64,000 nt of DNA from Escherichia coli. GTDB taxonomy: Bacteria; Pseudomonadota; Gammaproteobacteria; Enterobacterales; Enterobacteriaceae. Where the stretch lies: assembly GCF_003334335.1 (NCBI RefSeq), contig NZ_QOWQ01000018.1. One strand, given 5' to 3'. Shown in pieces: positions 60,818 through 63,535 of the stretch; position 1 is the first letter of the stretch, and the number at the start of each line of letters is the position of its first letter. Below the pieces are notes generated by a model that did no database searches, was not told the DNA's origin, and worked only from the letters and a program-made list of their open reading frames with translations. The position numbers and the translations under genes are program-made.

Positions 60818-60905
60818 ACGACAATTTGGTGAGGTGTCCGAGTGGCTGAAGGAGCACGCCTGGAAAGTGTGTATACGGCAACGTATCGGGGGTTCGAATC
60901 CCCCC
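60818..60905 (+). tRNA. serX: tRNA-Ser (anticodon GGA)
   Basis: 88 nt GGTGAGGTGTCCGAGTGGCTGAAGGAGCACGCCTGGAAAGTG...GGTTCGAATCCCCCCCTCACCGCCA: D-arm GAGTGG, anticodon loop CCTGGAAAG, long variable arm, T-arm GGTTCGAATCC, encoded CCA. Confidence 0.95.
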
Positions 60906-60911
60906 CTCACC

Positions 60912-60945
60912 GCCAGATTACAAGCGCATGTTATTGTTTAACATG
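60912..60945 (+). terminator. Rho-independent terminator of serX
   Basis: Hairpin aagcgcatgtt-attgttt-aacatgcgctt followed by a T-run, 7 nt after the tRNA 3' end. Confidence 0.8.
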
Positions 60946-61064
60946 CGCTTTTTTATTTATCCTTCCAGACAGTATGCCACCGGGTATGCCATCTGAAACC
61001 GGTTTGTATGAGCCGCGATCACATCTTATCGGACAATTTCCGATCTTTAAGCATACTGGCAAAG

Positions 61065-61910
61065 CTATACTGACAGCATGTCAGGATAGTGTTCTGCAAT
61101 AATATCATTCAGTCGCTCAACCAGTTCCGGTTTTCTGAACGTGATATACGCGGAGCCCTTCTTAAAGTATCTGATACTGAACATCTCATCTTCATAGTCC
61201 TCTTTCCCCTGAACAGACTGGATGTGCTCATCCAGATGAATGGTGATGTTTTCCCGATTGTCGGGGATCGGTTTGCCGCTGAACAGGTGCAGCATTCTTT
61301 CCAGGTCGGTAAGTCGATCTGCCTGTTGCCCGCTGTTCAGATGAAATCCCCACCGGTCCCACCTCACCAGATTGTTGACGATAATTTTACTGCCAAATTT
61401 ACAGGGTGAGTTGGTTTTGTAATTCCAGCTCAGCACTCTGAAGACGTTGATCACTCCTCGCTCAAACACGTCATCCTTATTCTGGTGCAGTTGCTCAAAT
61501 GTGCTCCAAATGTTCGCTTCACTGATTTCCGGAAAGTTATCGTACTCCAGTGAGCGGTACCATGTATCACGGGCCTGCGCATCCATTAATGACAGCATCC
61601 CGGAACGTTGCATCAGGCCACGCCAGATTTCGCGATCGAGATTGCGGGTGATGGCTTTCATTGCGGTTTCCGGTTTCTCCATGAGCCAGCAGCCGCAGCG
61701 AAAATCCTGTTTCATGGCCCAGTCCCGGGCGGTTTTACCGCCAATGCTTTCCGTCAGTACCGAGATTTCAGCCAGTTGCCGGATAAGTGTGTCGATTTGC
61801 AGCAGCGCACTCTTTCGTACAGCCAGAATGTGGCGGATACTGGTTGAGCAGATAACGTCCGTATGTCCGTTGACCAGTTCCGGGCGGGAGATTGTGATAT
61901 CTGACATCAT
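61065..61910 (-). CDS. Uncharacterised 281-aa island protein (possibly DUF4942-like)
   Basis: Intact ORF MMSDITISRPELVNGHTDV... with Shine-Dalgarno aaggaaaaacg before the ATG; no recognisable catalytic motif; family assignment from memory of island annotations, not searched. Confidence 0.6.
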   Translation of the reverse strand: MMSDITISRPELVNGHTDVICSTSIRHILAVRKSALLQIDTLIRQLAEISVLTESIGGKTARDWAMKQDFRCGCWLMEKPETAMKAITRNLDREIWRGLMQRSGMLSLMDAQARDTWYRSLEYDNFPEISEANIWSTFEQLHQNKDDVFERGVINVFRVLSWNYKTNSPCKFGSKIIVNNLVRWDRWGFHLNSGQQADRLTDLERMLHLFSGKPIPDNRENITIHLDEHIQSVQGKEDYEDEMFSIRYFKKGSAYITFRKPELVERLNDIIAEHYPDMLSV

Positions 61911-61991
61911 CGTTTTTCCTTTTGGTTTATAAACGAAAACGCCAGCCGTATTCAGGCTGGCGTCAGTGGAATGAAGTCTGGTGAGTAAGAC

Positions 61992-62189
61992 TCACCTGTT
62001 CTGTTGCAGAAGCTGCTGTTGGCGCAGGGTACGGATATCTTCCCTGGCCTGTTCAATGCAGGGCAGCAGTGCTGCTGAATCCGTTTTATCCTCATCGTTG
62101 TCGAAGATAATCCCTGATTCGCAGTCAATATTGTCCTGCAGCCACGCAATCAGAATATCCAGCGCCGTTTCTGTGGTTAATGATTTCAT
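61992..62189 (-). CDS. Small 65-aa island protein (possibly DUF957-like)
   Basis: ORF MKSLTTETALDILIAWLQDNIDCESGIIFDNDEDKTDSAALLPCIEQAREDIRTLRQQQLLQQNR, 16 nt downstream of the YeeW-like stop; acidic, helical; unsearched. Confidence 0.45.
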   Translation of the reverse strand: MKSLTTETALDILIAWLQDNIDCESGIIFDNDEDKTDSAALLPCIEQAREDIRTLRQQQLLQQNR

Positions 62190-62205: not shown

Positions 62206-62694
62206 TTACCAGTCGAAAGTGGGGAACCCCGGCAGACATTCTGCGCCGGCGTCCAGATGAATGAGACTGACGCCATAACGCCGGGTGAGAGTGACGACCA
62301 GACGACGGAACGTTCTTGACAGGCCCAGGCGTTTAAGCCGCAGAACCGGGTACGACCATGCATCGGTACGTAACAGATAGCCGCTGCCTGTAAAATGAAT
62401 CCATTCTGTTTCGCCGTCGTCATTAGTCTGGTGTGACAGCGAGTACAGCCAGGCGTTGTCCGTTTCCGTGATATGTGCGGTACTGCAACGTATGCCGGTA
62501 AGGGTTGTTAACGGTGGTGGTGTACTGGTTGACTGCTGGTCGGATTTATCGACCACGCGGAGTGAATAACCGTTTTCAGAGACCTTGTTAATCAGTTCAG
62601 CGAGATTAACACCATCGACGTCAACGACAATGCGCCCCATGTTCAGCGCCTGCATGTTAATGCTGTCGGCTTCCGGCGTCAGGGAAAGGTTCAT
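62206..62694 (-). CDS. YeeW-like protein (DUF5983-type), full length
   Basis: 162-aa [57 protein letters not shown]...; its ATG overlaps the CbtA stop as ATGA; position matches yeeW downstream of cbtA. Confidence 0.6.
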
Positions 62695-63074
62695 TGTTTC
62701 GCCTCCTCCGGATGCTTGCCCAGGGTAATGTTATTTACCATTCTGTAATTGTCCCGGGTCATCAGGCCGGTCGCCCTGCGAGCCCGGAGAATATCAATGC
62801 TGTTGATTAACTGAGACGACGGGGCTCCTGCGCTGAATCCCGGCTGGTCAGTTCGTACCAGCACGTATTTTTCAACGAGAAAGTTCACCGCGTCACACAG
62901 TGAAATCCCTGCCTCAATATGCTGCTCAATCACACGTTCATCAGCGAACGGTGTGTCATTCAACGTAAGGCCATAGTGCTGGTCCAGCAGTCGGGTGAGC
63001 AGTGTCTGCCAGATTTCAACCGGAGACGGGCAGCGCGATGCCGCCCGTACGTGTGTGTCGGGTAATGTTTTCAT
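62691..63074 (-). CDS. cbtA: CbtA-family toxin of a type IV toxin-antitoxin system (YeeV/YkfI/YpjF-like)
   Basis: Start at ATG 63074 gives 127 aa [70 protein letters not shown]..., near-identical to remembered YeeV-family toxins. Confidence 0.9.
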
Positions 63075-63154: not shown

Positions 63155-63535
63155 CTATTCCGGAGGGTTACTTTCCGTTTCGGTCGCAGGATAAACAGCC
63201 AGATAAACGTAACCACAGGAGCCGAGGGTGTCGGCATCGCAGGTCAGCCCTTTCGCATACAGCGTGACGGTATGCTGATGCCGGGGATTCAGTTCACCGC
63301 TGGTGAGCATGAGTTCCAGTTGTTTCATCAGCAGTGGAAAAGCCTGGTCCAGATGGTATGCATCCGCATTGCTGAACCGGCCTCTGATACCGGCGCGGTC
63401 TGCAAGGTAATGCAACCGGTTACCCTCCTGCACCAGACGTGCCCCGAAACAGGGCGTCACGGTGCAGGGCAGCCCCCACCAGGGGCGGTCTTTGTTGTCG
63501 TCGGGAAGCGTTGTCCCGGGGAGTGTGTCTGACAC
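63155..63535 (-). CDS. cbeA: CbeA-family antitoxin of a type IV toxin-antitoxin system (YeeU/YafW/YfjZ-like)
   Basis: Probable GTG start at 63535 gives [54 protein letters not shown]... matching the remembered YeeU N-terminus ([13 protein letters not shown]...). Confidence 0.88.

Follow-up and report, generated by a model that had tools for sequence, protein, structure and literature searches.

The gap between the last two genes of an Escherichia coli genomic island raises the question of what the two inverted repeats lying in it do. The first-pass annotation of this DNA had singled out a perfect hairpin at the stop codon of a small island ORF (here hairpin 1), had mentioned a second hairpin with a T-run on the minus strand just before the terminal ORF (hairpin 2), and had taken the two together for an intra-operon terminator or attenuator separating toxin-antitoxin genes from the terminal ORF. 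Our analyses, which compare sequences and predicted folds, favour a narrower reading as the probable one: hairpin 2 would be a constitutive, leaky Rho-independent terminator within a cbeA-cbtA-DUF5983-DUF957-DUF4942 operon, with hairpin 1 being incidental to it.

The gene string at the tRNA-Ser end of the island

The window, by which we mean the whole stretch of 64,000 nucleotides that was analysed, is a part of the E. coli chromosome with the order csg-ycdZYX-ghrA, tRNA-Ser(GGA), genomic island, and it includes the tRNA-Ser (serX) end of an E. coli island of the CP4 type. The first 3 kb of the island are taken up by a string of minus-strand genes that reads, in transcript order, ...yeeS, yeeT, a hypothetical gene, cbeA, cbtA, DUF5983, DUF957 and DUF4942 (table 1). 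The genes are tightly packed, with DUF5983 and the cbtA-family toxin gene overlapping by 4 nt and 16 nt separating the end of DUF5983 from the start of DUF957, and at this end of the string the one gap of any size is that of 81 nt between DUF957 and DUF4942, which is home to both hairpins. The DUF4942 reading frame has its first ATG at 61910, and PGAP takes the second one (61907) as the start; AGGA, GGGA or GGAG is kept ahead of the DUF4942 ATG in the homologues. The TGA of DUF957 is the single stop that stands between this gene and the in-frame ATG of DUF4942 (window 61911-61994, minus strand), as is also seen among the loci L003-L019 and L030-L035.

Among the proteins of this part of the island, only DUF4942 was confirmed by Pfam, and searches of DUF4942, DUF957, DUF5983 and the toxin with NCBIfam and PADLOC gave no matches. 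The gene arrangement is nevertheless a very common one, as, of the 5426 complete E. coli genomes, 4097 contain the DUF5983-DUF957-DUF4942 junction, the median number of copies being two and the maximum nine, and the annotation of the copies always corresponds to these three genes.

The DUF4942 end of the island adjoins the 3' side of the tRNA. Behind the tRNA-Ser(GGA) gene serX itself (60828-60915, plus strand) there is, at 60922-60950, a 12-bp hairpin with a T-run, presumably the terminator of serX. Past DUF4942, the minus strand showed nothing terminator-like, and the strongest minus-strand terminator candidate here thus precedes the last island gene.

Table 1. Positions of the genes and sequence features discussed in the text (window coordinates).
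Feature	Position	Strand	Basis
DUF4942 gene, 281 aa, terminal island gene beside tRNA-Ser	61065-61910	minus	ORF list; Pfam PF13708, E = 3.9e-66
Shine-Dalgarno-like AAGGA, 6 nt before first DUF4942 ATG	61917-61921	minus	sequence
U-tract UUUUCGUUUAU after core stem of hairpin 2, 7 U in first 9 nt	61929-61939	minus	sequence, terminator scan
Hairpin 2, predicted intrinsic terminator stem-loop, GACGCCAGCC-UGAAUAC-GGCUGGCGUU	61938-61964	minus	terminator scan, fold, conservation
Hairpin 1, GGUGAGU-CUU-ACUCACC on transcript, dG -8.4 kcal/mol	61980-61996	minus	sequence, hairpin scan, fold
TGA stop codon of DUF957 gene	61992-61994	minus	ORF 61992-62189 and PGAP annotation of identical locus L001
DUF957 gene, 65 aa	61992-62189	minus	ORF list; PGAP annotation of identical locus L001
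DUF5983 gene, 162 aa	62206-62694	minus	ORF list and PGAP annotation of L001
CbtA-family toxin gene	62691-63074	minus	L001 6892-7275, offset 55799 to window; ORF list
CbeA/YeeU-family antitoxin gene	63155-63535	minus	L001 7356-7736; ORF list

Hairpin 2 has the anatomy of an intrinsic terminator

Read as DNA along the minus strand from 61964 to 61938, hairpin 2 is GACGCCAGCC-TGAATAC-GGCTGGCGTT, with the core stem being followed by TTTTCGTTTAT. Nine perfect pairs, or ten when a G-U pair is counted, enclose a loop of 7 nt, and seven of the pairs are G-C; the core 8-bp stem (61940-61947/61955-61962) has a predicted dG of -15.4 kcal/mol and the extended form one of -18.4 kcal/mol. The hairpin and T-run that the first-pass annotation had put at about 61937-61955 do exist, but they sit at 61938-61964, with the T-run reading from 61939 to 61929.

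In a terminator scan of both strands between 60.5 and 64 kb, hairpin 2 ranks top (10 pairs, 7 GC, tail TTCGTTTATA). Its GC-rich stem falls within the range usual for intrinsic terminators (about 5-14 bp, with a loop of 3-8 nt), a U-rich tract follows directly 3' on the transcribed strand, and the whole structure lies downstream of a stop codon and is co-oriented with the gene, beginning 30 nt past the first base of the DUF957 TGA. The U-tract is broken after four U, and in some of the homologues it starts with a C.

Prediction of the fold of the minus-strand transcript, which the first-pass annotation had suggested as a check, returned both hairpins from a 121-nt RNA at -40.2 kcal/mol (z = -4.9 against shuffled sequences), most of the energy coming from hairpin 2 and -8.4 kcal/mol from hairpin 1. 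Within a context of 271 nt, the nine Watson-Crick pairs of hairpin 2 have pair probabilities of 0.94-1.0 and the terminal G-U pair one of 0.70. Perfect 9-bp hairpins occur 24 times in the window, as against 1.65 +/- 1.5 in shuffles, and hairpin 2 is among them; its palindrome pattern is found a single time, the expected number being 0.01. A repeated element of the REP type was considered as another candidate and rejected, the palindrome being present once in the window and always in the DUF957-DUF4942 context.

Conservation of hairpin 2 within Escherichia and beyond

Hairpin 2 is nearly invariant across the Escherichia loci, the few changes consisting of a wobble pair, U-G (GACGTCAGCC), of a mismatched stem top or, in one O157 strain, of a single internal mismatch. 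Within the E. coli copies, nucleotide diversity is lower in its arms (pi 0.03-0.05) than in its loop (0.175) or in the DUF957 coding sequence (0.093). The O157 change, seen in the O157:H7 strain 146N4 (L004), is a G-to-A substitution in the 3' arm at the equivalent of window position 61943 (GGCTAGCG); compared with an otherwise identical variant (L019), it weakens the stem from -17.3 to -10.7 kcal/mol.

The K-12 genome carries a remnant of the locus in CP4-44, between yeeW and yoeD (NC_000913.3 2,078,178-2,078,347; L014 3179-3348), where it is unannotated. What is left comprises the C-terminus of DUF957, hairpin 1 in degraded form, hairpin 2 in intact form and the Shine-Dalgarno sequence, and the remnant is cut off at the start of DUF4942. 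The sole K-12 copy of hairpin 2 is the one located there (2,078,289-2,078,315, plus strand).

To look further afield, one genome per species was scanned with an alignment of DUF957, which yielded 29 loci. Homologues of DUF957 with 58-77% identity, followed by a homologue of DUF4942, were found in Citrobacter, Kluyvera, Superficieibacter, Tenebrionibacter, Edwardsiella, Yersinia, Mixta, Serratia and the strain B14, and at each of these loci the gap contains a GC-rich hairpin, a T-rich tail, an AT-rich box, a Shine-Dalgarno sequence and the ATG. Taken over 30 distinct homologous sequences, comprising those of the taxa just listed together with E. coli paralogues and E. albertii, hairpin 2 is kept in all 30, its dG lying between -10.6 and -17.3 kcal/mol, and of the first 9 nt of the tail 5-8 are T. 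The distance from the stem to the DUF4942 ATG is 23-35 nt in 29 of the 30 extracts, the remaining one (L040) stopping at that ATG. Hairpin 2 is missing from a single locus, that of Lelliottia (L042), in which DUF957 is broken and another gene follows downstream. A terminator scan of the Mixta locus (L029) gave the homologous site as its top terminator-like call; the Serratia homologue was not called by the simple terminator scan, yet it folds at -12.3 kcal/mol and has the tail UUUUGCUU.

In the relatives, it is pairing more than sequence that is maintained, with modest support. Standard pairs account for 95.9% of the alignment cells of hairpin 2, as compared with 18-47% for slid partners, and four of the ten pairs (seven cells) have changed on both sides, as against 1.0 +/- 0.6 pairs in shuffles. 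Compensated stems include GCCAGTC/GACTGGC in Tenebrionibacter (L025), CGCTACCC/GGGTGGCG in Serratia and CGCCTTCC/GGAGGGCG in B14, and at the base of the stem A-U has been replaced by G-C in four sequences. Three more Serratia pairs are concealed by gaps in the MAFFT alignment. To judge from the aligned sequences, the covariation is real but modest, since most lineages share the same stem. Indeed, the stem is CGCCAGCC/GGCTGGCG in most genera, a degree of conservation that is unusually high for a mere terminator and that may be due to a sequence-specific role or to horizontal spread in recent times. The spacer that leads from the stop codon to hairpin 2 (window 61965-61991, minus strand; L022-L043) is unrelated in sequence between the genera. 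It is C-rich and G-poor in every lineage.

The same enterobacterial module also turned up on contigs labelled as Lachnospiraceae, Arthrobacter, Collinsella and Chryseobacterium (L015-L019, L021, L033). Those bearing the first three labels, mostly short, show 92-95% identity to the DUF957 protein of the window, and the one labelled Chryseobacterium (L033, 339 kb) shows 63% identity and matches the Citrobacter-type loci L030-L032. These contigs are most likely mis-binned, mislabelled or contaminant sequences.

Hairpin 1 is probably incidental

The repeat that the first-pass annotation had flagged is real: the sequence of 61960-61999, gcgtcagtgg aatgaagtct ggtgagtaag actcacctgt, contains a perfect 7-bp inverted repeat with a 3-nt loop, GGTGAGT-AAG-ACTCACC on the plus strand. 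It does overlap the stop of the 65-aa ORF, as had been noted, and only its coordinates, previously given as 61979-61995, have to be moved by one position (table 1). On the transcript, the 5' arm reads GG-UGA-GU, i.e. the last two bases of an arginine codon, the UGA stop and two more bases, so that five of its seven bases are set by the coding sequence. The invariance of these outer five bases is therefore uninformative with regard to the structure of the hairpin. Perfect hairpins with a 7-bp stem and a 3-nt loop number eight in the window, the dinucleotide shuffles giving 4.15 +/- 1.9, and with loops of 3-8 nt the figures are 71 and 26.5 +/- 5.6; in view of these counts, hairpin 1 is unremarkable by itself.

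Nor does hairpin 1 have the other element of a terminator, as no U-rich tract is present 3' of it on the transcribed (minus) strand, where AGACUUCAUUCC comes after the stem; a weak tail with some T (TGTTCTGTTG) is seen on the non-coding plus strand only. Its fate was followed in 21 Escherichia-type loci, made up of 12 annotated ones (84-100% identity), the K-12 remnant, seven species-representative contigs and the window. The stem is perfect in eight of them and has a G-U variant in one, six keep only a 4-5-bp GGTGA/TCACC core, five have the arms split by a CTCA-rich insertion of 9-12 nt, and the K-12 copy is disrupted. In the loci with the reduced core, positions 6-7 of the 5' arm have changed from GT to AT, AG or AA and the 3' arm has stayed as it was, i.e. 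there has been no compensation, and covariation of hairpin 1 is absent among the Escherichia copies as a whole. Among the species-representative loci of other genera, most have no counterpart of it. The first-pass annotation had pointed to homologous islands as the place where the repeat should be sought, and it is thus hairpin 2, rather than the repeat originally flagged, that proves to be maintained there.

Two observations concern the same spot. The insertions in the hairpin-1 loop, found in L005 (about 1675-1700), L006, L010, L016 and L017 at the equivalent of window 61987-61989, have the look of TCTCACTCA duplicated in tandem, so that the site may be prone to slippage. The Citrobacter-type loci L030-L033 (about 1690-1708) have a different 7-bp hairpin, TGAATCA-CCA-TGATTCA, over their own TGA, which is a second, independent stop-codon hairpin and may be a coincidence arising from the self-complementarity of TGA and TCA.

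Hairpin 1 resembles stop-codon hairpins that arise by chance or from TGA/TCA self-complementarity in that a stem of 7 bp with a 3-nt loop occurs at a frequency expected from composition. It differs from them in its 3' arm: in the Escherichia copies diversity is 0.126 in the 5' arm and 0.024 in the non-coding 3' arm ACTCACC, the latter varying less than the DUF957 coding sequence (0.093) or the neutral expectation. On the whole, hairpin 1 is probably an incidental, lineage-specific and poorly maintained stem. A ribosome terminating at the DUF957 stop would, moreover, cover and melt it, and for this reason, together with the lack of a U-run and the poor maintenance, we place it outside the terminator mechanism. 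The notion of an intra-operon terminator thus survives for hairpin 2, for which the GC-rich stem, the U-tract, the conservation across genera and the compensatory changes all speak, and is to be dropped for the flagged hairpin.

A probable partial terminator ahead of DUF4942

If hairpin 2 works as predicted, most transcripts coming in from the toxin-antitoxin genes would be let go by RNA polymerase within the first few bases of the U-tract, and the fraction reading through would carry the DUF4942 message, to be translated from its own Shine-Dalgarno sequence some 20 nt further on. The terminal gene would then be expressed at a level lowered by a fixed step, and the upstream message would have its 3' end capped by a stable hairpin. 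Termination itself, its partial nature and the dependence of DUF4942 on read-through are what we infer from the features described above. A promoter scan of the minus strand from 61.0 to 63.5 kb detected nothing resembling a sigma-70 site, and no promoter-like site was seen at the homologous place in three distant loci.

Partial terminators inside operons are a familiar feature of the E. coli rpsU-dnaG-rpoD and rplKAJL-rpoBC operons. Like those terminators, hairpin 2 is a GC-rich stem-loop with a U-rich tract in an intergenic gap, and it stands before a distal gene with its own ribosome-binding site, no evident promoter and an expected step-down in expression. Unlike those operons, the present one belongs to a horizontally spread module in which genes of unknown function stand beside a type IV toxin-antitoxin pair, and its terminator is a predicted one.

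Published 3'-end maps were consulted for the K-12 remnant. The supplementary tables of PMC7815308 and PMC12207403 (Term-seq) list no 3' end at 2,0783xx, which is uninformative given that the remnant is poorly expressed, nor do they contain entries for yeeW or cbtA; in the tables as consulted, the nearest 3'-end entry is antisense in yoeF (2,078,833, minus strand). A survey of the literature on yeeW/yoeF, on DUF957, DUF4942 and DUF5983, and on Term-seq in pathogenic strains retrieved nothing on the DUF957-DUF4942 junction.

Alternative explanations

The attenuator proposed in the first-pass annotation would mean that read-through into DUF4942 is under control, the switch being an alternative RNA structure, the translation of DUF957, or a protein, such as a factor encoded by the island, that acts on one of the two hairpins. 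Such regulation would make sense of a terminator placed before a gene lacking a promoter-like site, and of the occurrence of a stop-codon hairpin in two separate lineages, Escherichia and the Citrobacter-type L030-L033. However, the 236 nt upstream hold no complement of at least 6 nt to either arm of hairpin 2, and the two hairpins form independently of each other with a probability of about 1; the lack of a complement for an antiterminator and the stability of hairpin 2 in its context argue against an RNA switch. As for translation, hairpin 2 lies 30 nt downstream of the stop codon, which, judging from known footprint sizes, should put the stem outside the reach of the terminating ribosome. 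Further points against an attenuator are the spacer, which is not conserved between the genera, and the lack of covariation in hairpin 1. An Rfam scan of 60.5-64 kb at E <= 1 returned the tRNA and chance matches only, with nothing in 61.9-62.0 kb, and neither a mutually exclusive antiterminator nor a leader peptide nor a ligand or protein sensor was recognized at the locus. We thus regard a regulated attenuator as unlikely, although a protein-dependent mechanism might still act.

Equally unlikely, in our opinion, is that the DUF957 3' UTR makes up an sRNA or a stabilizing module, with hairpin 1 as the 5' stem, the single-stranded AGACUUCAUUCCACU as the seed and hairpin 2 with its U-tail as a terminator of the Hfq/ProQ type, the RNA being released by termination and processing from several copies per genome. 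The layout does invite the idea, as two hairpins flank a single-stranded segment of 15 nt and the whole ends in a terminator; the module, moreover, has the wide distribution in complete E. coli genomes described above, and diversity is low in the 3' arm of hairpin 1 and in hairpin 2. Against this, the segment between the hairpins, where the candidate seed would lie, is more variable than the coding sequence (pi 0.145 vs 0.093) and is unrelated in the other genera, hairpin 1 is not maintained, and Rfam gave no match to it even at E <= 1. The U-tail of hairpin 2 has only four U in a row; as a rule, sRNAs that depend on Hfq require a longer unbroken run. No expression data for an RNA from the DUF957 3' UTR were found in the literature and the supplementary tables. 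Enterobacterial sRNAs derived from 3' UTRs, of which GlnZ is an example (bioRxiv 10.1101/2022.04.01.486790), share with the DUF957 3' UTR an intrinsic terminator, an upstream stem-loop and a single-stranded stretch; the DUF957 3' UTR differs from them in its short, interrupted U-tail, in having no seed conserved outside Escherichia and in belonging to no Rfam family. That the 3' UTR, from hairpin 1 through the CUUCAUUCC segment to the terminator stem-loop, is actually released to act as a regulatory sRNA has only its architecture in its favour, and we hold this to be slightly less likely still. If it were true, three quarters of E. coli genomes would carry, in one to nine copies, CP4-type islands with a trans-acting RNA output.

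The palindrome might instead act as DNA, hairpin 2 being the operator of a dimeric regulator placed over a weak promoter (with the TATAAA/TATATA box just downstream) that drives DUF4942 independently. The strong conservation of the arm sequence between genera would fit such a site, as would the AT-rich TTTATA(T)AA box found 6-8 nt past the stem in most lineages. Yet no site scored as high as 9/12 in the promoter scan, the box is swapped for TTTATCTGC in many E. coli copies, and a transcript starting 7 nt past the box would lose all or part of the conserved Shine-Dalgarno sequence. Serratia and B14 keep the pairing and not the sequence, and several variants amount to G-U pairs, which exist on the sense strand only, a pattern that fits an RNA stem better than a protein-binding site. 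An operator in this position therefore appears very unlikely to us.

Hardly credible at all is a hairpin-assisted read-through of the UGA that would fuse DUF957 to DUF4942. It is true that in 12 of the 13 distinct Escherichia-type variants the gap is a multiple of three (81, 84 or 96 nt) and free of other in-frame stops, and that it is open and in frame also in L030-L033, L034 and L035. The other lineages, however, are out of frame or have stops, with TAA or TAG as the stop codon; in addition, the stop is placed within the 5' arm and not upstream of the stem, the would-be coding spacer holds the terminator and the Shine-Dalgarno sequence, and an open in-frame gap of 27 codons has by our own estimate a chance of about 0.09. 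The variable columns of the spacer are distributed over the codon positions as 9/8/10, compared with 12/9/26 in the DUF957 coding sequence, and since the substitutions in the spacer thus lack codon periodicity, the open in-frame gap is probably a coincidence kept by descent.

Implications for the cbeA/cbtA islands

With hairpin 2 read as a leaky terminator, DUF4942 would be set apart from the toxin-antitoxin-linked genes of the cbeA/cbtA island module by a conserved predicted terminator. A specialist would hardly be surprised by its presence, and its practical value lies in annotation. For expression studies of these islands, it means that equal transcription of DUF4942 and of the genes upstream of it should not be assumed.
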